A stretch of DNA of 64,000 nucleotides from Psammoneis japonica. Taxonomy: Eukaryota. The stretch spans positions 225,100 through 289,099 of the forward strand of contig QPGO01000055.1 in assembly GCA_008632985.1 (NCBI GenBank). The letters are read 5' to 3'. Made by a program: the position numbers and the translations under genes. Positions 5,846-48,130 of the stretch are shown here, piece after piece (position 1 is the first letter of the stretch; the number at the start of each line of letters is the position of its first letter). The notes beneath the pieces were generated by a model. The model was not told the origin of the DNA. It saw nothing but the letters and a program-made list of their open reading frames with translations, and did no database searches.

Positions 5846-5954
5846 TGCACTTCTCCGTTGAGTAGTTCAGAGCGTCATCTGACATCGGACCGCGTGATCT
5901 GAAGTTTTATGATGACGACCAAGGAGCACCTTAATCATTGCGGCCATGCGTTTC

Positions 5955-15311: not shown

Positions 15312-16544
15312 GATGCATTTTCAGAAGCAGGTGGGAATCCAGGTGACATGCTGGGCCTGCGGAATTCTGCATGCAAGCTCTGCAGCAAAATTGTTGGGTG
15401 ATGAACACAGGCCTGTTCCAGCTCCAGGTGATCTGCTTTTCATTGCGTGAGAGGCCGATTTTCTGCGCAGTTTGGCGCAATCAACTCCTTCAATTTTGAT
15501 CATTTCAAAAATCGAAAGGTGAGTGCACACCCGAAAATGCATGTAAAGTGTGCACTTGCCCTTCGATTTGGCAAAAAATGGATTTGGAAAAAAGCCAATT
15601 GCACCAAATGCACAAATTTCCAAATGATGGGAATCGAACCCGCGCGGAGCACCTGGAGCTGGAACAGGCCCACATCAATGATCGCCAACAGAACATGAGG
15701 CAATTTTGTGAATGCACAAACTCATCCACAATTGAAGCACATCATTTTTTGCTTGGCCAGGAGCATTCTTCAGACATTGAAGAATGTGCCTGGCATGCGC
15801 TGATGGTCTTGCAATTTCGACATGCTCCAGCCCCAGGTGACGCACAAAACAACAATCGACTTTGAACACAATTCATGCATCTTTTAGTGCATGCAGCATT
15901 TTCACATAAAATGCTTGGACAGATTGACTTTTGTGGGCTTCTAGAGTGTGCACATTTAAATGGTTTTTTGAGGGGTGTTCAAGTCCTCATGGGACCTGTG
16001 TCACAAACTTCCTCAGCAGACTCAGCGCTGATTGTGCATCAGCAGAGTTGTGCTGAGATTTCTTTGCAGGTGGAAAACCCACCAAGCAGCATCGTAGAAA
16101 GATGTGTTTGGGTGACATTCAAATGATGGCAACATTTTTGCCGAAAATCATCCATTGTGTCACGAATCTTTTGACGCAATGAAAAACACAGATGGCACAG
16201 TGACAATGATGTTGCAGCACTCACACGAGTCTTGTCAGTGTTGCAAAACATTTGTGTTTGTGTGAATCCATGCTTTTGGTGGTGAAAGATCAATTGCAAG
16301 TTGGGGCCATGCAAAAATTGCACAAATGTCGTTTTTGTGCACGATTTGGTTCACGTGCGGCTGGAGCACGTCTTTCGTTCAACAAAACATCTGGGGTTTT
16401 GCAAAACAGCAAGCCTGGCAGAACAGTTTTTTGGAAGATCACACATCATGGAAACACATGTGTGAAACATGCAATGGATGATAAAAAAACAATTGTGTCA
16501 CATGTCAGCACTGCAAGCTCCCACCCAGAGCTGGGGAACGCATC
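15312..16544. mobile_element. Degenerate ~1.2-kb TIR element, same family as the MITE at 55935-56330
   Basis: Shared blocks (GCAGGTGGGAATCC..., TCAATGATCGCCAACAGAA..., GTCAGCACT...GCTCCCACC); decayed termini; internal copies of GTTCCAGCTCCAGGTG. Confidence 0.7.
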
Positions 16545-16809
16545 TGAGGGTGCGAGATGCTAAAAAACAAAGCCCGCTGCAATCTGTTGCAGCTGATGCA
16601 AAATCGGGCAGTGTCAGCTGCAAGCCACAGCATGAGACAATGACAAAGCAAGTTGCTTTGTCCTCCTTGAATGAACCACCTGTTCATGTCATCTGATTCA
16701 AACTCAACTGTGCAAGAACAACAGCACAGCCCAACAGCAGCAGCGTCGACAATGATGACAGACAAGCAACAAAACAGTGACGACAAAGCACAAACAACAA
16801 ACAACAAAC

Positions 16810-17019
16810 TGGGGGAAGTCTCCAGCCAGTTGCTGGCTGAAAAAAAGTCTGCCATCAACACATCAGGGGGTTTTGCCAGCGCAATTTTGTGTGTGCAAAA
16901 GACGATGAGTCTGTCCAGCGTTCACCAAAACACCCCAACACACAGATTGACAGATGACTCTTTCAATGCAAATTCCACACAAGATTCTTCAGCCAGCAGC
17001 TGGCTGGAGACTTCCCCCA
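16810..17019. mobile_element. ~210-bp MITE
   Basis: TGGGGGAAGTCTCCAGCCAGTTGCTGGCTGAA vs TTCAGCCAGCAGCTGGCTGGAGACTTCCCCCA inverted repeat; flanked by AAAC on both sides. Confidence 0.7.
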
Positions 17020-17557
17020 AAACTGGGTGCCGCCACTTGCAACGCACAACGAGAATCCCAGTGGCGGTCTGTCAGGTCTCCATTGGGAATCAGGAATCCA
17101 TGGCGGCTTGGAGGGAAAACCCCTTGTACAAGTCCTGCCGGTACACACGTCTACGCAATTTTGAAATTTTGATTGCGATGGACAGACTGCATTTGCCCTG
17201 CCTCTTCTTTTCCCGCACGAAAGTGACACGCACTGGTGTCAATCTTGTGAAGTCGCAAATCTGCATGCATTGCACCAATCAGAATGGCGGAAACATCTGA
17301 ACACGAATGACGCAAAATGTGAGGCGATCTATTTAGGGGTTCCGGAAGCAACTGCATCGTCATGTGTTTAAGTACGCTGTTTTTACTCATAAATAACTCT
17401 GTTTAGTGTGACACGATGACGTAAAACAATCCTTTGTCCGTGTCACTTTTTCTGTTGTCGTGAACAGCTGCCTCCACTGATTCTCGTTATCGTTGTATCC
17501 AGAGTTTCTTTCGCATTCTCACCAAAGAAGGGAGTGTGTTTCTATTGTAAATGTAAA

Positions 17558-24754: not shown

Positions 24755-24832
24755 AGGGGTATCAAATATCAACGTTTGATTACCGATGGAGCGTTGCTAT
24801 GGGGCGCAATGTTCCTGCCAAAGAAGACTCAT

Positions 24833-25383
24833 ACTATGAAGGAGTAAACCGATAACTACAGCTTATTGTATCTATGTTTTAGCATTTTTACAGACGCCTT
24901 CTTTCTTCTTCTCCATGAAAATACCGCAGTACTCTGAGACGGTACAATCTGTTGTTTGCTTTTAAAAAGTAGAGATCTTTTGGGACAGTCTCGTCCCCTT
25001 TGATGGGGAGCCACCACTAAATCATCCCGTCACTAATGTATGGGCCACAAGATGAATCTCTCGGTTAAGGATTAACTGTATGAAGACGACAGGTTACTCT
25101 CTGAATACAGGGTCCACTGTCTAGCAAAGCGTGGCCTTCAACTAAGGAGAGACCTGGAAAAATTAAGCCTGGGAGGACGTGTAAAATGTGAACCAAATTC
25201 GACACCTTGATGAAAGCGTTGGAATTTGTGGAAAACTGTCACTGGCCTAGCTAGAAATAAAGATGAAACAAACCATGCATGTTCAATTTAACTTAGATGT
25301 TGTGGCAAACGTCTTTAGAGAAGCTTCTTGTGTTTCTTTTTCTTCTCAGGTGGCTGGACAGGAACTTCTTGTCAAATGACAAT
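24833..25383 (-). repeat. Duplicate of the SERRATE 3' end and downstream flank (39481-39871) with a ~172-bp insertion (24978-25149)
   Basis: Colinear from ACTATGAAGG to CAAATGACAAT in both places. Confidence 0.9.
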
Positions 25384-25790
25384 GCAGAGTTGAGGTGTTG
25401 TCCTGTGCAGCTGGCAATTTGCTGGGTTGTTTTTGAAAAGGTGTCAGCTTGCTGCTGTTTGCCCCCTGTCTTGTCACACACAAAGACAGTGTGCAGCTCC
25501 TCTGAGCACCCCTTGAGCTTGCTTTGCATCTCTGTGGTCACGCAGCTCCTCTGTGCACCCCCCTCTCCTTTTGCAGTCTCTTCTTGAGCCCTGCCCCTGT
25601 TTTTGAGCACATTTGCTGGCCTGCCACTCATCTCAAATGGCTTTGAAGCTGCTGCCAGCATGCTGGGTGCCTGGTTGCTGCCATTGTCTCCAACAGTTTC
25701 AGCATTTTGGGCACGGCTGTGTTGGAGCAACTGCACTGACTTTTTGGGCTTGGGCCTGCAAAGTCACAGATCTCACCCTGCACTGGAGAA
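25384..25790 (-). pseudogene. Copia gag N-terminal fragment, inverted relative to the adjacent element
   Basis: KGCSEELHTVFVCD...QADTFSKTTQQIASCTG resembles the start of diatom Copia gag (KG..EL....YD...QAD.F.KTT..IA.YVG). Confidence 0.55.
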
Positions 25791-25849
25791 GATCAGCACA
25801 CTCTGGTGGGTGTGGAAATGACAGCTCTGCTCTAGAGCAAGCTGGCTTG

Positions 25850-28800
25850 CCTGTCTCTCTTTCACACTGTGATCTTGTCGGTTTGCCCAACATCAATTTT
25901 AGTCTGCCAAAAGATGGTGATTCTGACTGCAATTCTGAGCCAGCCAAGAAAGAGCAAGAAGAAAAAGCACTCAAGTGTGAGTGCAAAGTGGAGCTCAGTG
26001 GCTGCCACAAAAAGTTGAAACAGTTCAAAGAAGAGAACAAGACTGCCACAGTCACCAAGATTCTAGATGACTTCTGCACCAAGCAAATGAAGCAGAGATT
26101 GACAGGTGATCCTGGCTTTGACAAGATCAAGGATGGTCCAATTGAGCCAATGAAAGTGATTCAATTCCTGACACTTGACTCAGTGAGAGGTCGACATCCA
26201 TTCCACATGCTTGCCAAGGCCATGAAGAACACCCTGGAAGTGAGTCAGCAAGAAAAGAATGAGTCGTTGAATGACTGTCTGTCAAGGTTCAAGAACCAAG
26301 GAGATGCTGCCAGTGAAGCACTTGGGGAGGAGATGTTAAATGGACTCATCTTGAACACCAAAGAGTTTGAGGATGCCAGTGCAGGCAAGCAAGAAAAGCT
26401 GAGGAATGCAGCATTCAAGACATGGACAACTTGTCCACTTCCAGAAAACAGCTGCAGCTGCTGTCACAAGAGCCTCAAGAAAAGCTTTGCAGTCTTTTGG
26501 AAGGAATGCGCACCCAAAGACTCTGGACAGGGCAATGGATGTGCTGGTGCTGAACCATCCCTGGGACAATGATCCCAAAAACTGTCACAAGAAGAAGAGC
26601 GATGAATGAAGAGAGGGGAGCAGCAGCAACAACAAGAGCAATGGAGTCTGACAATGCAAAGGACCACCAGAGTCATGCCCAGAAGATTGGCAACAGTGAC
26701 ACAACTGCGCGCCACTGCTGTGGTGAACCAAGTCACAAGTCCCCACAATGCAAGCACATGAGAATGATGTTGCACTTGATGACTGGCGCAAGAACACTGG
26801 ATGGAACAAACTGGGTGCCAGGGGACAGGCAGCGAGCCATGCACAGGCTCAAGGTGGCAATGAAAACCACTCATTGGCTGGCAGTGATGACACGTGAGTG
26901 TCACCACCAGTGCTGGATCTGCTGGATCAACATGTTCTGCCAACAGCAGAGGAGCAGGATGGACTGGACTGCAGCTGGTCAACATCAAACCAGAGACAAG
27001 TGTGATCCAAGCCAATGCAGGCATTGAGAGAGATGAAATCATCCTCAACAATGGCTCAACCCTCAGTGTGGCAGCAAGCTGGAAGTCAGTGCACAATGTG
27101 CAACAAACAAAGACCAACATTGATTTGTCCATGAACACAAGAGTGGACACCCCAGACAAGAAGCGGGCTGCACAATGCCCTGATGGGGGGGACATGAAGC
27201 TTGGATCTGAGGGCACAACAGCAAACATCCCAAGTTGAAGGATGTGAAGAGCAGATGCTGTGTGACATGCAATGACAGAGTGGTGGATGAGCTCTGGCTG
27301 CTGAGCAAAAAAAAACTGGCAAACAACAAGAAGCGGCATTCAAGGCCAATGATGTTGGGCTGCACATGCTCACTCTGAGCCAGCAATTCTTTGGCTGCAT
27401 CAAAAAATTCCAAGAGAATGAGTCACATGTGAGCATGTCATTGAAGAAGAAGAAGATGATGATGAGTGAGAAACAGAAACACAACACAAAACAGAGTGCA
27501 CCCAGAACCACCCAAAAGCCAAGCAAGTGCTCAGGCTGCACCAGCAGCATGAGGCTGGAACACCTGGTGCAAGAGATTTCAAGCAATTTTCATGTTCCAA
27601 TCTGGTGAAGAATCTGTTCATCACACCAGAAGATGTTGACAAAATGGCAACCATTTGGGGTCCACCCCTGTGGATGTGTTGAAGGTCAAGACCAAGCGTG
27701 CATGTTGTTCCCATGAGAGGAACAACATGACAGCCATTCCATCTGAGATTTGTGAGAAGCAGAGAAAAGGTGTGACACTCTGCATTGCTTGATGCCATGG
27801 AGGCATGTGCAGAGCCAAGCTGCTGCACAAGATTGACAAGATGATCAAGTGCAACCAAGTGTGAGACTGAAGCCCAAGAAGCACACTGGTTTGCACACAG
27901 TGCACTGGACATGATTCTCTGACAGTGCAGCACGGCACTGTTCAAGATTGACTTCATTGAGTGTGATCCCGAATTCAAGGCTGTCCAGCCAAAGTGCCAG
28001 ATGGCATGAGTTTGGAGTTGCTGGATGTCAACACCAGTGACCATGTGCCAGAAGCAGAGCATTGGGGCCATCAAGGAGCAAACCTGGGCTGCTGCGCACC
28101 ACCTGCCATGCAAGATGATGCCCAAGTTGATGTGCAAGCATGCCGCAATCAACAGGGTGCTGCAATGAAGGAACCTTGTGACTGGCTGTGACAAGCACTT
28201 TGAGCTTGCCTTTGGAGAATTTGTCCCATCCCACATTGAGAACAACCCTGCCAACACAGTGGGGACATGTTTGTGGCATTGGCAGCACACAACACTTTGA
28301 CTCACCCAAGGGTGGCAACTGCACTGTGAACCTGCACACAAGGAACCTTCTGAGCCCCTGCAAGTGCACCTCAGCTCCACTGACTGACACACATGTTTTG
28401 AGTGGTTGAGAAGATGGCATCCTCCCAAGGCAACAAGGGCTTCAAGTTCACCGGGAAACACAGTGACGACACAATCTCCGTGGTGCTGGTTGGGCTGCAG
28501 GAGTGGGGCTGGACAAGAAAGGTGAAAGCAACAGCAACAGCAAAGACAAAAACAAACAAGACAAAAATGACATGAACATTGTGACAGGTGCAGAGTCAGA
28601 TGACAGTGAGTGCAAACATGACTCAGCAGATGAAGAGCGCAAAGAAGCATGCAGTGCATTGGCAAACAAAAGTTTCAGCCCCAATCACCTGCATGCAAAC
28701 CAAGTGTCAGATGAAGAGTGCTGCTCTGCAACTGTGAAGAACAAGATGATGATCCATTGGAAGATGAAAATGAACACCATGAAGGCAATGATCTGTCACA

Positions 28801-30700
28801 GAAGACAATGAAGAACCCCAAGAAGATGCTAAATGGGAAGGTGGAAGAATGGCAAAAGAAGCAAGAGATCTGCCAGGATGAGTGACACGGGGCCAAAAGT
28901 GCCTCAACACCATGTTGCGGATCAGAGCACCCATGAGAGAAGCCAAGAGCGAGAAAGTTTAATTTGCTGGAGTGGTGGACAGCACCAAGAAAGTGCAAGC
29001 AAAGTGCCATTGAATGCTTGCAACCTGACATGAGCCCCAATCCTGAGGATCATGTCAAACATGACATGCAAGCCAGAAAGGTTGTGGCCCAATTCACACG
29101 TGAGACCAATGACTGAGTTTGAGTGGGGGAGGCTGTCTCCTTTGCCCAGCAACACCTGCTGCATGAGGGCATTGAAGAACTTGACCAGAAGGGGTGTCAA
29201 ACAGCTGCACAACCAAGTGTGCTTTGCACCAACATCAGTTGAGGACATGACTCTGAGTGAAAGGGCCAAGGCCACAACAGCCTTGGTGCTATTTCTGATG
29301 GAGAAGCAAGATGGTTGGGTCAATGGGCACATGGTTTGCAGTGGGAAGCCAACCAGAGAATGGCTTGACAAGGGTGGATCAGCCAGCCCAATGGCATCAT
29401 TGGAAGGAGCGCTGATGACAGCCATTGACGAAATTGTGGAAGAGCATGACATCATGAGTGCACTTGTTCCAAACACATTCATTCAGATGTTGACATCAGA
29501 GCCTGAGCAAGGTGAGGACTGGACAGTGATGAAGCTTGCAGGAGCATTGGCAGACATGTCAGTGAACATTGATCCCAACCTGTGCAGACCATGTGTGGTT
29601 GCAGAGAAGGGGGGGGAAGCAAGAGAGTCATCCTCTGTGTCCAAGTCATCAGAGCTGTTTTTGTGGCACAAGAAACTTTGCAAGGACTTGGAAAAGAACA
29701 GGCTTGAGTTTGTCCCATGCAATCTGTGCATTGTCAACTGAGCAGTCAATTGCAAGCAGCGCACAACACATTTCCACATGGGCAACCTTTTGATGAGCCA
29801 CGTCAACCCAAAAGTGAATGACAAATTCCTGAGATGACTGAACAAGCTGCACAGAAGTCATTGCAAGGCCATGGCAACCTCAGGGAAGAAGCAAGGCCAC
29901 CTTGGAATGACCCTGTGTTTTGCCACCAAGGGCAAGGTGAAGGTTGACATGACCAAGTGTGTTCAGAAGATGACCAATGAGTTTCCAGAAAAGATCAAGA
30001 TGAGTGTGGGTGCCATGGCAACACCAGCAGGAGACAACATGTTCTTTGACACCAGTGGCATGAGATTGCCAACCAAGAAAGCAGTGAAACTCCACACATG
30101 GGCACCCAAAGGACTGCTCACATCCAAGAGAGGCTGGGTGGATGTGTGCCCTGCTGTTGCAGCACTGTGCACTTCAGTCAGAGAACCCACCAACAAGGGT
30201 TGGGGGCAGTTGCTCTGTTGCATCAAGTGCCTGAACCAGGAATGAAATGAAGCCACTGCTCTGAGCGCAGATCACCTCTGAGCAACAAAGTGGTGCATGG
30301 ATGCATCATTTGCCATGCAAGCTCAACACCCAAAGCAGCATGCTGAAGCTGGGCTTGTTGGAGTTGATGATGCAATGACTGTGATGATCCTGTGGACAAA
30401 GTCATTTGTGGAGCACAAGGGGTGTCCAGTCAACAAGAATGTCCTGCATCAGGACAAGAACAAGAGTGCCACCCCCGCTGGAGAGCAATGGGTGCAGGAG
30501 TGCCAGAAAGCACTCAAGAGCACTCAACACTCAGCATTTCTTTGCCACCAAGTTGAGAAGGGCAACCTCAGAGTGCAGCATTGCCCAGCTGATGACATGT
30601 TGGGAAACTTGATGACAAAGCCATTGCAGGGCAAGAAGTTTTGAAAATTTGAGCAAGCCATTGAGGGTTGTCAGCAGCAGCCATGGCAGGCAAGGTGCCT
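25850..30700 (+). mobile_element. Degenerate Ty1/Copia (CoDi-like) LTR retrotransposon internal region
   Basis: Order gag (ESLNDCLSRFK), zinc knuckle (HCCGEPSHKSPQC), protease (IILNNGST), integrase (CDPEFK, DHVPEAEH), RT (FLMEKQDG, SASPMASLE), RNase H (DASFA, AEAGLVGVDDAM, HCPADDMLGNLMTKPLQG). LTRs not identified. Confidence 0.88.
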
Positions 30701-31261
30701 GCCTGTCCTGCAATGTCAGATGAGAATTCTGCCTGATGCATGTGGGTGAAAGATCCTTGCAAGCACTGAAAACCATGCAGAGCCAAGACATGAATGGGTT
30801 GCAGCTCAAGTCATCAAAGATTTGTCCATTGAGAACAAGCATTCTTGACGATGACAGATCAGGTTTGCAGTCTGACACATGACGACGTGTCTGCTCAAAG
30901 CTGGCCAACTGCTGGCACATGACAGAATGGCCAAAGGACCAGGGCAGGAGAACCAGCAAAGCTGAAGAGAAAGATTTGCAGATCTGCTTGCTTGAAACAA
31001 GGCATTGGAGAAAGCACAGAAGATTGGAGCCCATGGCTCAATTTTAAACACAGCTTGGAGCAAAGAGAAATCCACAGACCAGATGCTTTAGATTGCTGTC
31101 AGCTCTCATTGGATGAAGAGAGAGAGAGAGAGTGACAGGGAGAGTGAGAGAGACAGAGAGAGAGAGAGACAGCAATTGAATTTGAATGGTCTTGGTCAAC
31201 TTGTCCGTCCTCCTTTGGATCTTTTGATGCAACAGCGCCCACCATGTGAACAACAGCAGCC

Positions 31262-31313
31262 AGCAGCTGATGAAGCCACTGCCCGTGAAAGTCTCATTGT
31301 CCTGACTTCAGCC
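31262..31313 (+). ncRNA. Decayed hammerhead copy
   Basis: CTGATGAAGCCACTGCCCGTGAAAGTC...GACTTCAGCC. Confidence 0.55.
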
Positions 31314-32304
31314 AATGTTGTTGTGCCTGCTGTTCACTGAAACAGCTGGACAAATGTCTGATTGAGTGGCTCTGCCTCAGCTGCTGGTGTCATTTGTTTG
31401 TCACATTCAACGGAAATTGGCTTTGCCAATTTTGATCATTCCAGAGAGAGAGAGGCAGAGAGAGAGAGAGAGAGAGAGTGCAAAGGAACCACCCTCCCCA
31501 CCGCATGCCATGCTCTGCCATGCACTGCATGAAGCTGTGCTCCCAGAGGAGTTTAGCGCCAACCTCATCCATTGCAAGCGATTCATTGATGATGTCTTCA
31601 GCATTTGGAAAATCACCGAACCTGCCACTGACACCGCATGTTGGAGGGCCGCATTTGCCTCCAGACTGAATGACTGCAAAATCAATTGGGTCATGAGCCC
31701 GCAGTCACTCCAATCCAATTTTATGGATCTCACCATCACACTCCAAGGCTCCCACATCCACACCACTCTCTATGAGAAAGAGATGAATCTGCATCCATGC
31801 ATTCCACCACACTCAGCTCACCCACCTGGAGTGCTCACTGGCCTGATTGTGGGCACGCTCTTCCACTTTAAAAACCTTTGCTCCAATCCATCCGACGCTA
31901 AAGCAAAGATGAAATCACTCTGCCTGCGCCTTCTTGCTCAAGGCCACAAACCCAGCAAGCTGCAACCCATTTTCCAAAAAGCATGCAACCACTTTTTTTG
32001 AAACGAGACCACAGTGGAAGCACCTCCAACCAACCCACCCATCTCCCTCCACATCCCCCATCATCCAAATGACCCACCATCTGGCAAACTGCAGAAGATT
32101 TGGAAAGAAATGATGGCCTCTCCACCCTGCTCCCAACCACCAGCCAACATCTGCAACCATGCCCAGCAACGCATTGGCCTGGACCATGTGATCATCTGCT
32201 GCAGCCGATCACGCAACCTTGGCAACCTCCTTTCGCACTGCATCCTTCACGTCTCCAATGCCCTCGCAGTTTTGTCCTGCCGGGTTGCAAACAGGGAGGC
32301 CACT

Positions 32305-32335
<31 letters not shown>

Positions 32336-32444
32336 CGCGCGGCAAACTTGTGCCAAAAAATTGGTCGATCAAGTCCACCCGCCCATCCTCCACCCCTTGG
32401 ATCCTTTTGGCGCAACAACTTCAACCACTTCAACAACATCAGCC

Positions 32445-32490
32445 GGCCGCTGATGAAGCCACCACAAAAGTCTCACTCCTGACTTCAGCC
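32445..32490 (+). ncRNA. Decayed hammerhead copy (GAAA box lost)
   Basis: GGCCGCTGATGAAGCCACCACAAAAGTC...GACTTCAGCC; differs from the 35761 copy by CG->CA changes. Confidence 0.6.
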
Positions 32491-32623
32491 AATGTTGTTG
32501 TGCCTGCCATTTGTCAAAACAGTTGGACAAAGATCCAAGCTGGCAGCTCTGCCTTGGCTGCTTTTGTTCTTTGTTTGTCGCATTTGATGGAGAATTGGCT
32601 GCGCCAGTTCTGTTGTTTTTCAA

Positions 32624-33622
32624 ATGTCGAAAACTGCTGAACAGAGCCAGGAGTTTTTAGCTCTGCAGGAGGAAACCAACGACCTCATCTCTACAACCCA
32701 ACTGGCTTTCAAAAAGCAAGTTGTCCAAGCCACCAAGATTGAACTCCGAGTCATCCAAGAAGAAATTTTGGAGTCGTGCGCGAAAGCCATCCGACTCGCA
32801 ACCGAAAGTTTCGTTGTGGCCGACAGCATCAACACGCCTGTCGACACTGCAGTGGTCACCCCACTCGACCGCTGCCATGAGACGTCACTCAAACACGTCA
32901 TGGCCCGCGACCTCAATGCCTTCCTTGCCAAGCACAAGACTGCAAACACCGTCCCTGACCTGCCTCAACCGCTGGTTGCCCCTGCCGCTCGACTGACACA
33001 AGAAGAGGACCGAGCTGGCGACTCCTTGTTCCTAACGCAAGAACCCGCACCAGCACCAGCAGCTCCGCAGATCACCGCCGCACAACAGAAAGTCGAGACT
33101 GAGCTCAGCAAGATTTTCTGAGCATTTGAATGCATCTTCGTGTCTCCCTGGGAAACCCACCTCAAAACCAAAAAGAAACACGATGTCAGCCTCCAGCTGA
33201 AGAAACTGAACAAAGAACACTTTGACACAGAGGCCACCGAACACGCCAACATGGAATTTGACAATGAAGCCGCCGTCGACCCTGCCACCCTGCAAGAACT
33301 GATCCGCAAGGAAACCGAGAAAAACACCAAAAAACTCTCCCAACAGGTCAACTCGCTTGCCCAACGAATCAAGTCCATGAAGGCTCAATCAAACACCCAG
33401 AGGGGCCGCACTCACACCGCCGGCGCCTCATCACAAAAAGAAAAAGGCAAAGGTGCCTCATCGGGTCAACCGAGGAAACAACGTCCTCAGCGCGACCGCG
33501 AAGCCGACGATGCCGACAACGACACCGCCAGCGCCAACAAAAGCAATCGCCGTCGCTCCAAATCGAAACAGCCATCGAAAAAGAAGCAACAGCACTCCAG
33601 CACCAATCGGAACAGGCGCTAG
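32624..33622 (+). pseudogene. ORF1 of the Penelope-like element (helical/coiled-coil, basic C-terminus)
   Basis: Two in-frame ORFs (32624-33121, 33140-33622) separated by one TGA, likely from CGA. Confidence 0.7.
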
Positions 33623-33714
33623 AGGCGATCCACCGCCGAATCCACCGCACACACGGATTCGTCGCCGATCCATCTCGCACAACCCACCACAACGCCTGCA
33701 CCCACCTCCAACAC

Positions 33715-35633
33715 ATGCCTGCCTGGTGCCACTTCAGCAGGCCCTCTCACCTTGCCTTCCATGATTGCACCACAATGAAACAACCACCAAAAAACCTTCA
33801 ATCACCACTCGGTCTCGGCTTGAAATTGATCCCAACACCACGCTTCACCAATGACGGGAAGTCCTCCAAGATCCAAGAACACACACTCGGACGATTCAAG
33901 CAAGACCTCGACAAGCATGAGCATTTTGCCAATGCCCCAATTGACAATGCTGACGGAGATTACAACCCCCGGATGTGCCTCCGGTCCAATTGGACACCTC
34001 CCTCTTGGAAACTCACCAACATCATCAAATGCCGCTGCACCACTTTCAAGACACAAGTCACCAAGCTGCTCGTGAAACGCCATGGCAGAACCAACCTCCT
34101 GCCTCACCAACGTCGCGCCCTCACCCACCTTCACAAACAAGATGACTTCATGATGGCTCAATGCGATAAGAACTTGGGACCCGCCATCATCGAAAAGACT
34201 GAACACATCAAGATGGCATGTCGCGACCACCTTAACAACACCAACGCATGTCGTTTCCTCAACGAATTTGAAACCCGATTCTATGAACGCGGCATCAAAA
34301 ACCTCCTCAACGATTGGCTCATGACATGCAAAGCCAGCCTCACCCCCATGGAACGCAAGCACCTCAAAAACTGTCTCGAAACTAACGAAGACCCGTTCCC
34401 TGTCTTCTGCCTCACTCCAAAGGTGCACAAGCCCCCGCCGCTACGATCTCGACCAATCGTTTCCACCAGCGGCAGCCCACTCTACGGCTCAGGCATCTGG
34501 GTAGACGACAAGCTCCAGAAGATTGCTCGCCACCAACGTTCACACTTCAAGAGCTCCCTGGACCTGAAACAAGCACTCGTCCGGATGGAGTTGCCACCGA
34601 ACTGCCTCCTCTTCACATCCGACGCCGAGGCCTGCTGCTCCAACATGCCCACCAATGAAGCACTTCGATTGATCGCCGCCTGCCTCCGACGTCATGAAAA
34701 TGACTGCAACGATGTGCCAACGGACGCCCTCATCAAAGCCCTCCGAATCGTTGTGGAAAACAATGTGTTCACATTCGGAGATGCAACCTGGCACCAGCGC
34801 AATGGAACCTGCCATGGGTGCACCACCCGCCCCTCCATGCGCTGCCTCATGCTGCGCACTTCACGAAGACACACTCCTGGAGGAGTTTAGCTCCCAGCTG
34901 TTTTATTGCAAACGATTCATTGACAACGTCTTTGGCATTTGGCGCATCACCGACTCTGCCACCGACTCCGCCACCTGGGAAGCATTTGCCTCCAGGCTCA
35001 ACGACTTCGACATCACCTGGATCACGAGCGCCCGAAGCTGCCAAGTCAACTTCATGGACCTCACGATCTCACTCCAAGGCTCCCACCTGCATGCCACCCT
35101 TCATGAAAAAGAAATGAACCCACACATGCACATCCCGCCTCACTCAGCTCATCCGCCTGGAGCACTCACCGGCCTCATCATGGGCATGCTCTTTCGCTTC
35201 AAAAACCTCTGCTCCGACACTGACGATGCCAAAGCGAAAATGAGACTGCTCTGCCTTCAACTTCAAGCTCGAGGCTGCAAGCCCAGCAAACTGCAACCGC
35301 TCTTCCACAAGGCACATGACCGCATCTTTGGCAACGCCACCGGAACAATCCAAGCACCTCAGTCAAACCCCATCTTTCTGCACATTTCCCATCATCCGAA
35401 TGATCCGCCATCAAGTGAACTGCAGCAAATTTGGAAAGGTGCCATGGCCACCCCTCCCGGCTCACAACCCCTCTCAAACCTTCGAAATCACGCTCGACAA
35501 CGCATCGGCCTTGACCGCATGATTGTCTGTCATGGCCGCTCACACAACCTCGGAAACCTTCTGTCTTGTCACAAACTTTGCATCTCCCATGGCCCCCCAG
35601 TTTCGTCCTGCCGGATTGCAAACAGGGAGGCCC

Positions 35634-35666
<33 letters not shown>

Positions 35667-35671
35667 GGTGA
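33715..35671 (+). pseudogene. Penelope-type reverse transcriptase, frameshifted, no visible endonuclease
   Basis: DKNLG, PKVHK...RPIVS..GSP, NNVFTFG...Q.NG, AMGAPPAP, KRFIDN(D)VFGIW, VNFMDLTI, IPPHSAHP; frameshift near 34810. Confidence 0.88.
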
Positions 35672-35760
35672 TTTGAACCAATCAATCGAGTCAACTCGCC
35701 TGTCCTCCACCACTCGGATTTTTTAACGCAACAACCTCAACCACGTCAACAACAACAGCC

Positions 35761-35808
35761 GGCCGCTGATGAAGCCACCGCGAAAGTCTCATTCTCCTGA
35801 CTTCGGCC
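35761..35808 (+). ncRNA. Minimal type I hammerhead ribozyme motif
   Basis: GGCCG-CTGATGA-AGCCACCGC-GAAA-GTC(loop)GAC-TT-CGGCC: conserved core boxes, stem I GGCCG/CGGCC, stem III GTC/GAC. Confidence 0.75.
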
Positions 35809-35959
35809 AACGTTGTTGTGCCTGCCACCCACCGAAATAGTTGGATAAATGTCCGATTAAGCAGCTCTACCTTAGCTGCTTGCATTCTTTGTTTGTCACA
35901 TTTGACGGAGAATCGGCTGCGCCGATTCGTTCGTTCATTCGAGAGGAGAGAGAGAGAGA

Positions 35960-37800
35960 AAGTGCAAAGAGCCAAGTGAGCTTGCCAGTTGCCTCTGCAT
36001 GAGGTGGCATGAACCAGGCAGAAAAAGGATGGTGCCAATGGAGCATGTGCACAAAGAATGCATTGTGAAGTGGGTTCCAGAAGCTGAAGAATGTGTGCAT
36101 GCCAAGAGCAAGCTTGCCAGCTGCCTTTCTGTGAGGTGGAATTAACCATGCCAGAAAAGGATGACACCAACGAAGCACACACACAAAGAATTCATTGTGA
36201 AGTGGGCTCCAGAAGCTGAAAAAAGTGTGTCTGCCACAGAGCTGATGTTCTCTGCTCATGACAATGAAGAAGAGATTGTGCAAGACATCAAGGTTTGCTG
36301 TGCATGCACACACTTGACCCCAAGGAGTGCTGGCAAACCATTGGGTGCAACAATGCAAAACAATGGAGGACATGTTGCAGCATTTGTGGTCCATCACATT
36401 GTCAGGAATCAGCCAAAGCAGGGATGATGGATGAGACACCCGTCACTGGTTCAAGGGGTGGCAACCTGTGGTTGACCTCAGACAGATGAGATGTTGGCCA
36501 TTTGAGCAAGTGTTCAGAAGCGGGCTGTCCTGCCTGTGGCATGGGCGCACAAGGGGCATGTGGTTCCCTCATGAAGAGGGTCACCAATCACCCTGAAGGT
36601 GCTGCAAATCATTGTCAACTGGCTCAAGGAAGTTGGCATCATTTTTCAACCATGACATCAAGATCGCACACGCAAACTTGCAAAAGATGCACAGAATGGG
36701 TTCTTGATTTTGACTCCCAACCAAGAAAATTGGTGGCTGGACCAAAGAGCTGCTCAGTGCTCTGTCATGTCATGACATCATGAAAAAATTGTCAAGTCTG
36801 TGTTGGGTGATTTGCAATGGTTGTGCAAGGCACAACGGACTTGCTGGATGACATGGCTGATTTCTCTGATGAGGGACAGCATGCCAGTCTGTGTTGCAGC
36901 AGCCTGGAGACCCTTGAAGTTGGAGGAGCACATGTGCAAGCAAGGTGAAAACTTGTGCGGCACTCTGGAAGAAAAAATCTTGGTTGCCTCATTCCAAGTT
37001 TTTAGAGTGCCAATGAGAGCAGCAACATCTGGATCAGGGTTGCTGCAAGGACCCAGGCATGCCGGGGAAAAAGCATTTTTTGGCTGCTGATGCCACACAC
37101 ATCGATGGCTGCTCTTTTTTGAGAATTTCATCTGTTTTTGATTTTCTTTAAGTGCACTTTGATCTCACTTTTTTTGTTTGGCAGATCAACCTGTTTGATC
37201 TGTCGGCACCAGTGGGCGCCTGCGCCGCTGCTTTTTTGTTGCAGGTTTGAAGCTGCGCGGCGAACTTCCAGCCAGGCAAACCTCAGCTGACCAAGCAGCC
37301 AGGGTGAGTGTGGCAAGCAGCACAGGAGAAAGCTTTGCAAGATTTCATTTGGCAACATCAACTTGCTGGTTCAACAGGAGCTCTTCACTCTAAGGCCGAT
37401 GAGCACTTGGCCCGTGACGGAGCTCAGTTGCTCAACTCACTCGATGAGCATCTCGCTCACTCTGCCCACAGAGTGCAAGAGCATCCGCAAAGCCCGACCT
37501 TTGGCAGTTGGAGGCACACATGCCATTGCAGCCGGGTGATGCCGATCTTGGCCAACTGACATGTGCTCCTGCCACACCTGGTGTGCTGGGGGTGTGGGCT
37601 GGCTTGTTGCCGGAGTTGCAGGGTGGAAGAGCAGCAGCACTTAAAACTCAATTTTGGGTTTTTTGTTTTGGTTCAACAAGAGCTCTTTGTGCTCCAAAAG
37701 CACAAGCCAATGAAGTCTCATGCGGCGCAAGATGACTTGTCGTGAGTGGGTGGCTGGGTGGGCTGCTTCGAAAAGCTCAACTGTGCACGCATGAACAAAG
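35960..37800. repeat. Unclassified TpA-depleted degenerate element with ~130-bp internal duplication
   Basis: GCTTGCCAG...CATTGTGAAGTGGG.TCCAGAAGCTGAA repeated at ~35980 and ~36112; TA nearly absent. Confidence 0.55.
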
Positions 37801-38235
37801 ACCCACGGCACCGCAATTGATTGTTTGCGCCCTCCAATTATGACATTTTTATTCCAGTCGTAAACCAAAACAGTGTTGTGTGCAGCATGTTCTCATCGAT
37901 GCTAAAGTTGCACCTCGCAATGATTTATGATCGTCATTTAAGCCCACAGCCTTTTAATCCTGTAATGTCTCTTGTGTGGCATTTTGTCTCTACAGCACTT
38001 TACAATGTCCTTCCCCACCGCAACCACAAAACGAATAATGCATTTGTACGAACCAGCACAGACCACTCTGATGAAAAATTTACATTTAAGCCCTCCACTT
38101 GCCGGCTTAAGTCATTTATAAGCCCAGACACGTTTTCAATTAGAAAAATGACTCTGGTGAGGATGACTCTGGTGTGGCATTGTACTCCTCACAATTTTCT
38201 CAACTCGTTTTTTTTTTTGCGAGACCCCGAACAAC

Positions 38236-42168: not shown

Positions 42169-42574
42169 GCTGGAAAAAAGACAAAGTCACCAGAAGTAGC
42201 TAAGTATTGAAGTGTAGACTGCTAAGGCAGACGCGGCAGCATAACAAAAACAGCAACAGCGATAACAACACAATAACATGTAACAGCGATGCGATGTTCT
42301 GTTCGTTTTGGTTTCCCTCCATACGTTGAACTTTGTGAGGGAAAAGATCGTACGATGGACAGAAAAATACGGCTCATGGCCTGTTTCGTAGAAACACACT
42401 GCAAGAATACAGTAGGACAATTTTTGGCGCGAAACTAAATAAACATCTTCAGTGCCGACGAATCACATGACAACTCCAAAAATAAAAAGGCTGTTGACAA
42501 CCAACAACAAAAACCAAAAGAACCATGAGCAGCCGTGTCTGTGGACAAGCTGTCAACAAGGGCGGTCCATCAAA

Positions 42575-45500
42575 ATGGCAGCGTCAAATGGGACACACGG
42601 TCATTCCAAGCGCAAGGCAGAAAAGAACGAACAAGAACCGGAATGAGCGCAACGCCGTGCCGAGTGTCATCGTAAACGTCATGGTGAAGCCATTGACGTC
42701 AAGTTTGGGTGTGAACGATAGAATCACACTGCATCGACGGAACCGAGATGTCATGGATGGTTGCTCAACATGTTGCCAACGGCAAGTCAATGCCGTGCGT
42801 GTGAATTGTGAATGGCGGGAGTCTCAATCACACGCCCGTGTGTTTCTTGTGCTCTCGTCATTGTCATCCATCGACAGCAGCGTCGGGTGCTTCTTTTGGA
42901 AGTGGAGCAGACGATGGCTCTCCGGATGGTCCAGAATGTGCCAGATTGATTCATCTGCCGCAGGGAAAGAGCTCAGCATTCACATGCGAGATTGAAATGT
43001 CGGAGCACGGAGCACGTTTGTAGAGTCAAGAAATGGTCGAAATCCACATCTACATCCTGTCACTTCAGCCGGGATCGAGGACAAGTCATGTGAGACTGGG
43101 ACTCCATTGATGCTCCGTGCGTCATTGGGATGCGCGCTCAGAATCCCAACATCTGCTGCGTCCCAAGATGGGAGTCGCAAGTCGCGCGCCTTGTCGGAAT
43201 TGCAGCGCATCAACCGTCTGGCCAAAGGAGTGCATCTTAGCAAACATGATGTGTCACACAAACGCATCTTCATTTCTGTCGCTGCGAACGCAAAGTCCAA
43301 GACAGAAATCGTGGCCATGTTCAAGATGGACGGTGGCAAAGGAGAGAACAGACCTTTTGAATGAAGCGGAGGCTTCCGGCCAGAAATCTGAGTGCAGCAG
43401 CATCTCCCCCGAGAGCTGCTTTAACATGACAAGCAAGCGTTTTCCGGCATTGAGGAGGTGCTCAGCCCGTGCGGCCAATTTAATCAAGGTCCCACATTTG
43501 TGCTCCTCAGCGGCAGCAAACCGTTGCCGCACCTCTGTCGCGCTGTTCCAAGCTTCAATTCGTTCCCGATCATCACTTTCCCTTTTCCACCTGGTCCTCA
43601 TGCAACCCTTCTTTGATGATTCTGCCCGCGTTGAATTGGGAGCCAACGGCAGCACAGCTCTGCATGGAAGCATGCTTCCACATGGGCGTCATTTCCTTCC
43701 CCAAGCGCGTCTCTCATGCCAGACATTTGCAGGTGCCGGTTGGAAATCTCGATCAAGACGAAGCTGTTGCGTTGTGCGACTTTGGATTTGGTCACCAGTC
43801 GGACTGTGTCGTGGGCAAGCGCGACGCATCCTGACTTTGGAATGTCGTTCCTCTGAGGTGATTGCAAAACCGATGAAACTTCCATCCTTTCGAACCAAAA
43901 AGAAATTTGGGGCGATGATGATGAGCTGATGAGTCCGGTTGTTCGTTGTCCTGGCTCTTGTCATTGTGTTTGCACTGAAATCGATGCACACGATCTGGCA
44001 ATTGTTGCCGCCCTGACGGATGCCGCTGCGGCCGCTGCTCTTCCTTCTGCTGTGAGCCAAGCGGGCATCCCTGCGTCACCGAGCAGCGTCACCATGTTTG
44101 ATTCCACATTTGACGGAATGAATTCCATGGTTGCGGGATCTTTGGGGGACGAAATGTCAACATCCGCATCACTTCCGATTCTGCGTGCATTTGTCGGAGC
44201 TTGGCTTTACGATGCCTTCGAAGCAAACAGTCAAGTTGCAGACGACATGCTCCACAAAGTGCACTGTCTTGTGTCGACGCCAGAGCCACTGTTGAATGAC
44301 CCAACTCTCCATCGAGTGATCCAATCATTGATGAAAGCGACTTTCTTTCGACGTCTTGGTGAACTGGAAAGGCTTGTTTGTCATGTTGTTTGTGCGACAT
44401 TTCGCAAGGTGACAGTCGCTGCGAATGAGAGCAGCCTCTCCGACGCTGCGGAGCATGTCAACTTTGTCATTTCTACGATTCGAAATCTAAGCGGAGCGTC
44501 CGAGGGTGACCAAATGTTTGCAAGACTGGGTCGCATTGAGTTGCGTGCAAGCACCTGCTTCTCGCATTGTCTCTTTCTTGACGAACACAACTGCGGTGGG
44601 ATTCATCCCGAGCGCCTCCAGTTGGAGGAGGGCGAAAGCGATTGGTTGATTCCGACTGAAGATGAGGGCGGTGTGCCAATCTTCCCAACGGTGGCAAGCG
44701 GTTGGAACATGATGCATCATTTGGGGAGCGAAATTGCACAAGATTGCTTCCGAGTCATTGTTGGTCACTTTTCCAAGGATGTTCTCCGGAAGCAGATTCA
44801 GCTTGATGAGCGAGACAAAAATGCCATGTTGGAGGACGATGCTCTAAATGCATGCAAGAAGAAATTGACATCTGAGCACTTTGCTGACTGCCTGACGCGA
44901 GCTGTAAGAGATCGAGGAGGAGGGAGGCGGTCCGAAAAGTTTTCTAGAGTCACACCCGGAACGCATCTCGTGCTCACCAATCCCACATTGGAGTTCATCA
45001 AGAGTGTCATGGTTGCATTGGAGTTGGATTCCGACGTACAAAAAGGAAGCACATGCATTGAAAAAGAGCTTGCTAGCTCAGACCGGAGTTCCAATGCTGC
45101 CAAGTGGGAAGACCCTTGCGCCTCTTTCATCTTGCCCGACATGTTTTGCATGGAGTGTCATGAATGTCGTGACGTGAATCTCTGTGATCTTCCGCCACTG
45201 AATGAAGAAGAGAGAACTCAAGTGCCAAGTCTCCTGGACGGAACTTGCAATCGCTAGAGGCGTGTCTACAATGCATCTCATGTGGTCGACTCCTTCTTCG
45301 TTACAGAGACAGTGGGAATGTGAAGACTGCGGCACCCCATGCTGTTCGCAGGACATGGAACGAAGACTTGCAGATCTTTGCAATCGAAAAGCCATTTGTC
45401 ATCAGTTGCAGGACGTGCGGTGCACCAAGACTGGTGCAGTTGGGACGAGAGCCATGTCACGGCAGTCCGATTGTTCGTCTGAGTTACAGCAGGACATCCC

Positions 45501-45603
45501 TCGGGAACAGGCACTGTCACAGTTGAAGATTGTCAATTGTCTTGCTTCGTTTCATGGCTTGGAATGGTCGGCCGAAATGACGCTAGAGCTGCTCAAACTC
45601 TGA
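42575..45603 (+). pseudogene. POLE: DNA polymerase epsilon catalytic subunit, C-terminal half only, mutated
   Basis: DUF1744-like CTEIDAHDLAI, LLNDPTLHRVIQSLMK, FLDEHNCGGI; C-terminal Cys motifs WEDPCASFILPDMFCMECHECRDVNLC and WECEDC...HQLQDVRC; several frameshifts and stops; no N-terminal polymerase domain. Confidence 0.85.
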
Positions 45604-45849: not shown

Positions 45850-48130
45850 CAGATGATGCCCATTTTGGGTGTCTGTCTTCTCTGCCTCAATCACCATTTT
45901 CCATGAGCAATGCCCACTGTGCACTGCACTGGAGCAACTGCCTCTTAGAGTCTAGACCAATGCAGCACAAGTCACAAGAAATGTGGCAGCATCTGCGAAG
46001 TTTGAAGCAAGCGTGACTGCGAGTGTCAATTTTTTACGGGATTCGCCAACGCATTTTGCACTCAGTCACAAATGCGACGCGCGCTCTTCATCACCACATG
46101 CAATTCCGACTTTTGTTGCACTGAAACACTCTTGCTTTGCCAACCCATCTTTGTTGCGATGCCACCCCAAACATGATTGCATGAATTGCACTTGTCATCC
46201 TCTTGTTGAATCTCCTGCTGTGCCTCTTTGATGCTGGTGAGCAGAGCCAGCGCGCTGCCACCACAACATTGGCCATTTTCTCTGTGAAAGTTGTTGAACA
46301 ACTGCCAGCATTGTTTTGCTGTCAATGTGATTCTCCTCACAATTGGAGAAATTTGCAAAGCTTTTCTTGCTCTCCTCATTCTGTCTGTCATGTGCTCATT
46401 GTCCAGCTCTGGCTCGGACCTCACATTGCTGGACTGTGACATGATGAGAGCTTTTTGGTCATGCTCATCTGCGTGTCACGCACTCAGATTTCTGAGTGCA
46501 CTTTTCTGCAAAATTGTGCCATCATGCTCCCTGTTTTTTGCCAAGCCGAGGGCTTTTTATCATGGCTGTTTGTCAGAACAAACATTGGCTCTGCTGGGTG
46601 TTCTCTTTGGTGTCTGAAGAACACACCTGCACAAGGTGGAAATGATGGTGTGCTTCACAATGAAAAAGGAGGTGCAATTGCAAAATTGCCGCTTTTTCTG
46701 TTGGTGATTGTTGGCACATTTTTGCTGCCTGGCAATTTTGCTGTGGAGCTTGTGCGCAGAATTGTGCACACAAATGCCACATGGAGTTCCACCTCCTGGG
46801 GCTAGAACACATCTTTTGCAGCTTTTTCTTTGAAGCTCACAATGCTGTTGCAGCCACTCTTGCGGCAACAGCATCTGTGTGCAGACAATGCATCAGAGCT
46901 TTTCTTCATTGTCAACTTTGCTGCCCACATTGTAGTTCCTTGGCTGCTGTTCTTGAAGTGCAAATTGCTCAGCCATGGTCATGTCAGATGTGTGGTGCAC
47001 CCCCAAAGATTGCAGGGCCTTTGAAGCAGAGTTTGCTGATGCTGCCCCATCAAAGCTGCTGCGGCTGCTTGAAAATGACTCTTTGAGATCCCAAGCATGC
47101 AAGAGCCATCAGGCAAGATGTTGGGTTGTGCACTGAGATGAGTTGACAAAAAGCAAACAAGCTGTGGCTCAGAGTCATTGCTTTGCCAACAGTGCTTGCA
47201 GCAGCTTCACTCCTTGTCTCAACAAGCTGGTGCTCTCTGGAGAATTTCCCCCCCCCCAGCCAGCAGGGAAGCCAAGCACTGTGCTGCACTTGTGTTGTCC
47301 CCCCACTCAGAACAACTGGCAAGTTCAGTTGTTTGTGAGTGTTGAGAACATTTCCCACCAGGTTTGGTTGCGCAACACGACCTGCTTCAGAAAACTGTCG
47401 AGGTTGCGTTGTTGTGTGACAGATGATGGCAGCTTGAAAAAGTCTTTCAAGAGACACTCCCCCAAGCCTGCGTCAAAGTTCATCGCATGTCGGCAACAAT
47501 GAAGAAACGCTGGGAGATGGAGTGTTTCGTGAAGCTTTTGAAGCTTCCATCCGCGCCCTTGGCAGAGCTGCAGCTGTGAGCAGCCCTCTGGCTTCTGTTG
47601 TGGAAGTCATCTCCATGACTGCAGATGCTGCTGTCACCTTGAATGATGACAACTTGGTGCTCATGCCCTTCTTGAGCAAGCTTGTGACAGTGACGCGCGT
47701 TTGTCAAGCAGCCAGTGGTGAGATTGCAGAAAGAGAACACAAATTGAATCTCTGGTGGTGTGGCGCAAGTGTCTTGATGACCAAACAGATTTTGTTAAAA
47801 GTTCATTGGGTGCAAGTGCACACATGAAAGCAATTTGAAAATTGCAGGCCACAAAAAACTTGTGAGACAACAGCACAAAAACAACAGCAACCAGGAAAAA
47901 ACAGAGAAAATGTTCGTGGTGAAGATGTGCTGGTGTGTGCTGGAGAGAGGAGCCCGGAGAAAATGTGGTTGTAGTGTCTGTCATTGATGCATCATTGGCT
48001 TTCCATGCAGTTGACGAGCATGTGGGATGGGGTGAATCAAAATGTGATGGATTTGTGACCCGATTTTTTTTTGACACCCACACTCCACCGGCACATTTTT
48101 TGAAGCAATGTTTTGCATTGAAGATTTCTC
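45850..48130. repeat. Unclassified TpA-depleted degenerate sequence
   Basis: TA nearly absent, strong TG/CA excess, no recognisable protein. Confidence 0.55.

Follow-up and report, generated by a model that had tools for sequence, protein, structure and literature searches.

We find that two copies of a reverse transcriptase (RT) gene from a putative Penelope-like retroelement in the diatom Psammoneis japonica have lost nearly all of their TpA dinucleotides, very probably by region-targeted hypermutation of double-stranded DNA that turns TpA into TpG or CpA. Both copies lie in a stretch of 64,000 nucleotides of contig QPGO01000055.1 (GenBank assembly GCA_008632985.1, positions 225,100 to 289,099, forward strand), which we call the window; all coordinates are positions in the window. 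The change runs in one direction, acts on both strands, goes nearly to saturation, is confined to blocks, reaches DNA that is not part of any retroelement, and is faster than CpG decay. A preliminary description of this DNA had noticed that the copies read TG in one and CA in the other at columns that are typically Tyr in Penelope-like RTs, and had concluded that ancestral TA mutated independently, after insertion and on either strand. Our analysis confirms the observation and supports the interpretation; CpG decay is a second process of lesser weight. The RT sequences are:

31488..32303, + strand: copy A, the 3' part of the RT gene, 5'-truncated, with an in-frame stop at 31999
33775..34809, + strand: copy B, N-terminal part of the RT (P0002); the conserved Tyr is kept at one of eight columns (Cys at five, His at two)
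34810, + strand: copy B, a single extra base that shifts the RT frame and is absent from other genomic copies
34811..35632, + strand: copy B, C-terminal part of the RT (P0001); the conserved Tyr is kept at none of eight columns

Copy A (31488-32303) and the corresponding part of copy B (34825-35634) share 810 aligned bases at 71% identity, with 150 transitions and 83 transversions. Adjacent double transitions between TG and CA occur 26 times, and each other class of double transition occurs one to nine times. Ancestral states were taken from alignments of the copies with intact relatives (24 for the C-terminal part and 40 for the N-terminal part). We call a column conserved if at least 70% of the relatives have the same residue, and a Tyr-consensus column if at least 50% of them have Tyr. 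Copy B keeps the conserved Tyr at 1 of 16 columns (0 of 8 in the C-terminal part and 1 of 8 in the N-terminal part) and keeps 217 of 268 other conserved residues (Fisher p = 1e-9). Copy A keeps 1 of 8. The lost tyrosines now read Cys (TGY) or His (CAY). At the Tyr-consensus columns there are 13 Cys and 6 His in copy B and 7 Cys, 5 His, and 1 Tyr in copy A, so changes occurred on either strand, as had been proposed. If we consider the columns where both copies have Cys or His, 6 are discordant and 5 are concordant, which is as expected of independent coin-flips and bears out the idea that each copy was resolved separately. The RT of copy B has 0.6% Tyr, 4.2% Cys, and 5.3% His, versus means of 4.2%, 1.1%, and 3.3% across 40 homologs.

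The five examples quoted in the preliminary description were all found at the codons given, and the stretches align as it claimed. In PCIPP/MHIPP, copy A has TGC at 31798 and copy B has CAC at 35129, and 21 of 22 homologs have Tyr; in GHKPS/GCKPS the copies have CAC at 31945 and TGC at 35276, again with Tyr in 21 of 22; and in LYEK/LHEK they have TAT at 31771 and CAT at 35102, with Tyr in 74% of 23 homologs. The other two examples stand in part. In LSHC/LSCH, the first column (CAC versus TGT) is derived from TA (Tyr in 13 of 22 homologs), but the second (TGC in copy A, CAC in copy B) is Arg in 22 of 22 homologs (the SYRKL motif) and is derived from CpG. In IHCKR/FYCKR, the H/Y column is variable among homologs and copy B still has TAT there; it is the next Cys, present in both copies, that replaces a conserved Tyr (91% of 23 homologs).

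We classified all 26 sites with TG in one copy and CA in the other by codon position and by the residue in homologs. Seventeen trace to ancestral TA, as the preliminary description had supposed, 6 to ancestral CpG, and 3 are undecided. The TA sites are Tyr codons; Leu, Ile, or Val codons with the TA at positions 2-3 (for example, Leu as CTG versus CCA or as ATG versus CCA); or sites where the next codon begins with A (for example, Thr in 22 of 22 homologs). The CpG sites are at Asp (23/23), Gly (23/23), and Arg (22/22), plus three at weakly conserved columns.

The loss of TA extends far beyond these two copies. Ten sharply bounded blocks, covering 28,950 of the 64,000 bases of the window (about 45%), have an observed-to-expected ratio (o/e) for TA of 0.02-0.11 and o/e for TG and CA of 1.4-2.0. 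In the rest of the window, the o/e is 0.59 for TA, 0.98 for CG, and 1.2 for TG and CA. The longest run with no TA is 2492 bp, versus a background of roughly one TA per 23 bp. These blocks include:

5951..7925: TA-poor block, first unit of a 2.63-kb tandem duplication (TA o/e 0.05)
8576..10550: TA-poor block, second unit of the duplication (99.5% identical to the first)
14001..17125: TA-poor block (TA o/e 0.05, CG o/e 0.38)
25301..37850: TA-poor block of 12.5 kb that encloses the element array (41 TA versus 743 expected)
42451..45575: TA-poor, CpG-normal block (TA o/e 0.11, CG o/e 0.90)
45976..48125: TA-poor block (TA o/e 0.04, CG o/e 0.34)
54826-55875 and 56276-56775: two TA-poor blocks with near-normal CpG, by dinucleotide o/e

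The CG o/e differs from block to block: it is 0.19-0.42 in the CpG-poor blocks, 0.90 in 42451-45575, and 0.76 in 54826-55875. Copy B as a whole retains 14 TA sites, with TA o/e of 0.08 and CG o/e of 0.84, and copy A has TA o/e of 0.11 and CG o/e of 0.38, so copy A is the older and CpG-decayed copy. (In the part of copy B that matches copy A, the CG o/e is 0.74.) Because copy B and two of the blocks are poor in TA while their CpG is near normal, the loss of TA either precedes CpG decay or runs independently of it.

A pair of duplicated segments, identified by comparing the window to itself, shows the direction of the change:

57511..58960, + strand: duplicate 'a', with normal TA and CG
60909..62450, + strand: duplicate 'b', the hypermutated counterpart of 'a', within a TA-poor block

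At the 63 cleanly aligned TA sites of 'a', 'b' reads TG at 27, CA at 23, CG at 3, something else at 10, and TA at none. There is no strand skew between TG and CA (binomial p = 0.67). The other 13 sites (CG or something else) fit the ordinary divergence of the pair, which is 16% outside of TA and CG. CpG decay is also visible in 'b', as a separate process: at the 70 CG sites of 'a', it has CG at 15, TG at 25, and CA at 21. Just one member of the pair is hypermutated; 'a' was spared.

Relatives of the element elsewhere are not short of TA. At all 77 of the metagenome loci that encode relatives, the TA o/e is 0.43-0.95 (median 0.65), so the loss of TA is a property of copies and not of the element family. 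(The patterns used to retrieve these loci came from intact proteins, and decayed copies elsewhere may have escaped.) There are also sibling copies within the genome. A search of public sequencing runs for this DNA listed three, all of a single sample, perhaps the one that was assembled, and none of RNA. On the element, the depth of contigs from a public run of what may be the assembled sample clearly exceeds that of unique sequence (about 60-65), so these contigs come from paralogs that are at least 90% alike. Among 40 listed differences from copy B, out of 159, there are adjacent CA-to-TG double changes at four places (33235/6, 33806/7, 34041/2, and 35390/1), and at a Tyr column (35531) one sibling has TAT where copy B has CAT. 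None of the contigs spanning 34810 has the extra base. The siblings thus carry their own resolutions.

Hypermutation of TpA has been described once before that we found, in the chlorarachniophyte Bigelowiella natans (Mettrop et al., bioRxiv 10.64898/2026.01.13.699255); our full-text search of the open literature found no report for diatoms. In that preprint, 231 of 302 new nuclear mutations in mutation-accumulation lines of B. natans fell in two integrated viral regions, and the mutations in these regions were, with one exception, A>G or T>C, all of these at TpA. It also reports 124 TpA-poor clusters of at least 3 kb in about 95 Mb, a nucleocytoplasmic large DNA virus (NCLDV) region with Rho of 0.45, TpA-poor coding sequences that are enriched for RT and DDE domains, and a candidate deaminase that is similar to ADAT2.

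The two systems are alike in that only TpA>TpG/CpA changes occur, on both strands and regionally, with loss of TpA and gain of CpA and TpG. They differ in several ways. B. natans belongs to Rhizaria and our window is from a diatom. The active targets in B. natans keep much of their TA, whereas here 45% of 64 kb is at 0.02-0.11 of expectation. In our window, a pseudogene fragment of a host gene and one member of a duplication were also struck, and TA loss can be placed in time with respect to CpG decay. Conversely, B. natans offers mutation data in real time, whereas here the process is known from the sequence of one genome. The targets in the window are retroelement copies, repeats that could not be annotated, a fragment of DNA polymerase epsilon, and a gene-like duplicate; no viral integration was found in the window.

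The Pol epsilon fragment bears on how the changes arose:

43484..45600, + strand: frameshifted C-terminal fragment of DNA polymerase epsilon (DUF1744 and zinc fingers, by Pfam)

It lies within the TA-poor, CpG-normal block at 42451-45575 and aligns to human POLE 1715-2190 (E = 4e-32), with Cys or His at several of the aligned Tyr. It is the C-terminal third of the gene, truncated at the 5' end and adjoining a repeat block, and it might have originated by retrocopying, transduction, or capture. PDB searches with the open reading frames (ORFs) 5' of the fragment did not find any upstream part of the gene.

Under the reading that we favor, hypermutation of TpA in double-stranded DNA, each TpA would undergo one A:T-to-G:C transition, on either strand at random. 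Since every Tyr codon contains TA, Tyr would become Cys (TGY) or His (CAY), with each copy resolving each site on its own. The process would run near completion (TA at 2-11% of expectation) and faster than the decay of older blocks that is driven by 5-methylcytosine. We infer that it acts in situ, on resident double-stranded DNA after insertion, which is supported by the experiment in B. natans and by the non-retroelement targets; the loss of TA from copies A and B would thus also have followed their insertion. It would serve as a genome defense that is linked to silencing. As 'a' was spared and a tandem duplication shows no burst of mutations (see below), targeting would be by silent chromatin or by a guide, and not by sequence repetition as such. 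As to the chemistry, we tentatively suggest enzymatic deamination of adenine (to inosine) at 5'-TA-3', as was proposed for B. natans, but we would not be surprised if this were wrong.

The same outcome at the DNA level could be reached by other chemistry. The T of TpA might carry a modification that makes it mispair with G, such as 5-hydroxymethyluracil made by a TET/JBP-type enzyme, or a TpA-specific lesion or repair bias in heterochromatin might suffice without any dedicated enzyme. TpA is palindromic, so A>G on one strand is T>C on the other, and sequence cannot separate them. The neighbor preference that is typical of deaminases is absent from the comparison of 'a' and 'b', and dinoflagellate DNA carries 5-hydroxymethyluracil mainly at TpA and TpC. 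However, 'a' versus 'b' shows no sign of TpC>CpC or other extra classes beyond the 16% ordinary divergence, and we consider such chemistry unlikely.

Another explanation is editing during retrotransposition, by an ADAR-like enzyme on the element's RNA (A to G after U), by a deaminase on first-strand cDNA, or by both. The affected DNA is mostly repeats or retroelements, each sibling copy has its own pattern, ADARs favor a 5' U (10.64898/2026.01.13.699255), and in copy B the sense-strand A>G change (Tyr to Cys) is somewhat commoner than Tyr to His (13 versus 6). But both strands of 'b' were struck equally (27 versus 23), a host-gene fragment and a gene-like duplicate were affected as well, and the 12.5-kb block is continuous across nested elements of differing CpG age and the spacers between them. 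The same spectrum is also described for resident single-copy DNA of B. natans (10.64898/2026.01.13.699255). Editing of this kind is thus very unlikely, and the preliminary description's preference for a DNA-level process over RNA editing is supported by the Pol epsilon fragment, the duplicated segment, and the mutation-accumulation result.

The pattern might also be a sequencing artefact, with modified TpA in silent chromatin miscalled as TG or CA. A strand-dependent miscall at a palindromic site would likewise yield only TG or CA. Nevertheless, the contigs from the public run (perhaps the same sample) match the TA-poor unique parts, with no other letters over 25001-30648; the affected DNA also has frameshifts, stops, CpG decay, and 16% ordinary divergence; and the mutations in B. 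natans were called from Illumina NovaSeq data (10.64898/2026.01.13.699255). We think an artefact is highly improbable.

Could CpG decay alone account for the TG/CA pairs, if ancestral CGY (Arg) or other CpG sites were methylated and then deaminated on opposite strands? CpG decay is real here: the older blocks have CG o/e of 0.19-0.42, at 26 other sites copy A has TG or CA where copy B still has CG, and 6 of the 26 discordant sites derive from CpG, including the Arg of SYRKL. About 10 CpG-derived discordant sites would be expected under independent decay, by arithmetic from the counts for A and B, which is of the same order as the 6 that were found. But at 17 of the 26 discordant sites the homologs show Tyr, Leu, or a codon that begins with A, copy B has TA at 0.08 yet CG at 0.84, and all 63 TA sites of 'a' are lost in 'b'. 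The preliminary description had named Arg in homologs as the finding that would point to CpG decay alone; instead, of the 7 discordant codon-position-1 columns whose consensus is clear, 6 have Tyr in homologs, and the sole CpG-derived column among the 7 is the Arg of SYRKL. Because CpG decay cannot remove TA, it is hardly credible as the sole cause, and it is a second, minor contributor that is concentrated in copy A. Finally, intrinsic composition or selection (elements that are TA-poor by origin or by codon use) can be dismissed, as the TA o/e is 0.43 or more in each of the 77 relatives, invariant RT tyrosines were destroyed, and the TA-normal duplicate 'a' has a TA-free twin.

Several observations weigh against in-situ hypermutation of resident DNA, or at least do not help it. 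First, the base 3' of the changed A shows no preference between 'a' and 'b' (p = 0.39), so no enzyme is singled out. Second, a 2.63-kb tandem duplication (5947-8579 and 8574-11205, head to tail, 99.5% identical), in each unit of which about 2 kb is TA-poor and about 0.68 kb is TA-normal, is unchanged at 35 TA sites in the TA-normal part and has a single TA-to-CA change among 6 in the TA-poor part. This pattern suggests targeting by chromatin or region rather than induction by repeats, with numbers too small for significance; the duplication may be a very recent event or an assembly artefact. Third, it is conceivable that the Pol epsilon fragment and duplicate 'b' arose by retrocopying. Fourth, with 83 transversions in 810 bases (10%), copies A and B stem from two insertions, one old and one young, and are not a clean before/after pair. 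For P. japonica itself, we infer action in situ rather than observe it.

The signature is distinct from the better known systems. Like fungal repeat-induced point mutation (RIP), it consists of dinucleotide-specific, block-wise transitions in repeated or foreign DNA, with the flanking genes intact. But RIP changes CpA to TpA and so creates TA, whereas here TA is destroyed, which is the opposite direction. Also, RIP mutates both duplicates, whereas here 'a' is untouched, 'b' is saturated, and the 99.5% identical tandem duplication had no burst. Deamination of 5-methylcytosine in transposons likewise gives TG or CA from a palindromic dinucleotide, on either strand, and is present in the older blocks. 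However, it acts on CG rather than TA, it is slower here (as copy B illustrates), and it explains just the 6 CpG-derived sites. The footprints of animal ADAR and APOBEC enzymes are also clustered transitions in retroelement copies, with a neighbor preference (5' U for ADAR). But these lie on a single strand (A>G in the sense strand, or G>A by way of minus-strand cDNA), are incomplete, and do not extend beyond retro-copied sequence, whereas here both strands are affected, the change is saturating, and DNA other than retroelements is included.

We now describe the element itself. The array at 31-36 kb is arranged head to tail on the + strand, in the order GA-rich repeat, L1, (GA)n, copy A, (GA)n, L2, ORF1, the RT of copy B, (GA)n, L3, (GA)n, where L1, L2, and L3 are pseudo-long terminal repeats (pseudo-LTRs). 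Its features besides the RT sequences are:

31120..31178: GA-rich microsatellite, the left edge of the array, read from the sequence and alignment
31179..31442, + strand: pseudo-LTR L1, with a CTGATGA...GAAA core, 75-78% identical to L2 and L3
31443..31478: (GA)n, read from the sequence
32304..32334: (GA)n 3' of copy A, read from the sequence and alignment
32340..32620, + strand: pseudo-LTR L2, CpG-decayed as copy A is, by alignment
32627..33619, + strand: ORF1 of copy B, with one in-frame TGA at 33119 (TA o/e 0.07, CG o/e 0.96)
35635..35668: (GA)n 3' of copy B; the RT ORF reads into it
35680..35930, + strand: pseudo-LTR L3, with a few TA remaining where L1 and L2 have TG or CA

By architecture and fold, copies A and B are probably an older, 5'-truncated copy and a younger, near-full-length copy of an endonuclease-less Penelope-like retroelement. 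A homolog search with the two RT pieces of copy B gave 230 and 2901 matches, and the relatives are about 640 amino acids long and 40-53% identical. The N-terminal part is 50% identical to a homolog (P0006) whose predicted structure has a predicted local distance difference test (pLDDT) score of 87. The best PDB folds for this model are the telomerase reverse transcriptases (TERT) of Tribolium, Candida, and human, followed by a group II intron RT and LINE-1 ORF2p; the relation to telomerase was tested at the level of fold, on the model of this homolog. A local copy of Pfam gave no match for the window's RT pieces, ORF1, or three intact homologs, and a sequence search of PDB gave no match for the RT profile; the precomputed annotation of homologs lists the accessions PF28514 and PF26215. 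Neither the RT ORFs (619 amino acids in total) nor the homologs of about 640 amino acids have a further domain that could be an endonuclease, and there is no GIY-YIG.

The element appears, from the sequence, to insert at (GA)n repeats, and the flanks suggest that members of this family, which have no endonuclease, use (GA)n/(TC)n for insertion or priming. The RT ORF of copy B ends in a RERERE tail because it is read through into the 3' (GA)n (35635-35668), and another homolog (P0005) ends likewise. Among the 77 metagenome relatives, 5 have (GA)n of at least 12 nucleotides (loci L002, L008, L009, L011, and L028).

Columns shared by the three pseudo-LTRs show TA, TG, and CA variously. We had considered L2 and L3 as the two pseudo-LTRs of a single insertion, and we dropped this idea: L2 is CpG-decayed as copy A is, and L2 and L3 (78% identical) are no closer than the other pairs. 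A self-BLAST of the window did not find an LTR pair for testing mutation in situ. The pseudo-LTRs contain a hammerhead-like core, CUGAUGA...GAAA (35765-35830, 32447-32510, and 31266-31340), with a long helix I (CAACAACA / UGUUGUUG), a helix III of 4 bp, and a helix II of only 2 bp. It folds with the pairings of helices I and III, with weak z-scores (-0.9 to -2.1). Rfam gave no hammerhead ribozyme, either at the gathering threshold or at E ≤ 1; the sole match at E ≤ 1 was a chance one to GcvB.

The element resembles the endonuclease-deficient Penelope-like elements Athena and Coprina, as described by Craig et al. 2021 (PMC8557442), in its telomerase-like RT fold, lack of an endonuclease, pseudo-LTRs, and head-to-tail array with a 5'-truncated upstream copy. 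This likeness is one of architecture and fold. Our element differs in having (GA)n flanks and no telomeric repeats, in sitting between genes, in having a separate upstream ORF1, and in that Rfam sees no hammerhead. Neither a telomeric location nor telomeric repeats were found for the array: its 3' ends are (GA)n and there are genes on both sides.

The genes that flank the TA-poor blocks have long uninterrupted ORFs: two HSF-type genes, TYW2, SERRATE/Ars2, DUF6824, and Sec1. The Sec1 fragment (its family was confirmed with the ESM Atlas) has named relatives that are all from diatoms, at 53-70% identity (Nitzschia, Bacillariaceae, Fragilariopsis, Fragilaria, Ditylum, Chaetoceros, Thalassiosira, and others), which places the window in a diatom and not in Bigelowiella. 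A homolog search with the DUF6824 ORF gave no matches. The genes with HSF-type DNA-binding domains are at 17420-17884 (+) and 53828-54529 (-), both within the 64 kb. HSF genes are greatly expanded in diatoms, so two in the window would fit.

DNA that is free of TA can contain neither TAA nor TAG, so frames within the TA-poor blocks stay open in all six phases: the 6 kb around the element has 64 ORFs of at least 60 amino acids across the six frames. Apart from the Pol epsilon fragment, Pfam gave no credible match for the ORFs of these blocks at 1e-5, and sub-threshold ones only at 0.05. The segment at 30282-30641 may be a Copia-like tail, with no support from Pfam. On the + strand of 26001-31000, TG (o/e 2.0-2.5) exceeds CA (o/e 1.6-1.9) over about 5 kb. 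Along with the 13 Cys versus 6 His in copy B, this may reflect a mild strand bias linked to transcription or replication, which is not significant.

We also note a few other features of the window. The segment at 24832-25383, just left of the 12.5-kb block, is 85-87% identical to 39480-39871 (the 3' end of SERRATE/Ars2), which is 14 kb to the right; this may be a duplicated flank or the relic of a rearrangement. At 38596-39156 there are 12 copies of a 33-bp unit, which are 68-91% identical to the reference copy. The region around this array (38318-39436) has five overlapping open ORFs of at least 110 amino acids, on both strands, with a GC content of 0.57 and a strong under-representation of CA (0.50).

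The window adds a further case to a kind of hypermutation with one earlier description; it comes from a major lineage where this was not known before, and its intensity is far greater. The one earlier report of a mutational genome defense in the direction contrary to fungal RIP (A:T to G:C at TpA) is the preprint on B. natans, where the long-term footprint is weak; here the signature is at saturation, in a diatom, which is a major group of marine primary producers. Beyond the preprint, the window provides natural before/after pairs, a host-gene fragment as a target, and an order relative to the decay of methylated CpG. It also makes the enzyme and the targeting signal testable in a lineage with genetic tools. 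On the practical side, TA-free blocks yield long spurious ORFs on both strands, which are a trap for gene prediction, and they defeat Pfam-based annotation of transposons and inflate the Cys and His content of predicted proteins. More speculatively, and with more doubt than confidence on our part, diatoms might hold a dedicated DNA-editing defense, linked to silencing, that erases nearly every TpA from inserted or duplicated DNA quickly, before CpG decay is visible and without requiring a second copy. This might be the same system as in Bigelowiella, and hence either ancient in SAR (Stramenopiles, Alveolata, and Rhizaria) or spread among marine algae. If so, dead elements would end up with long open frames in each of the six phases, through the removal of TAA and TAG together with the change of Tyr to Cys or His.

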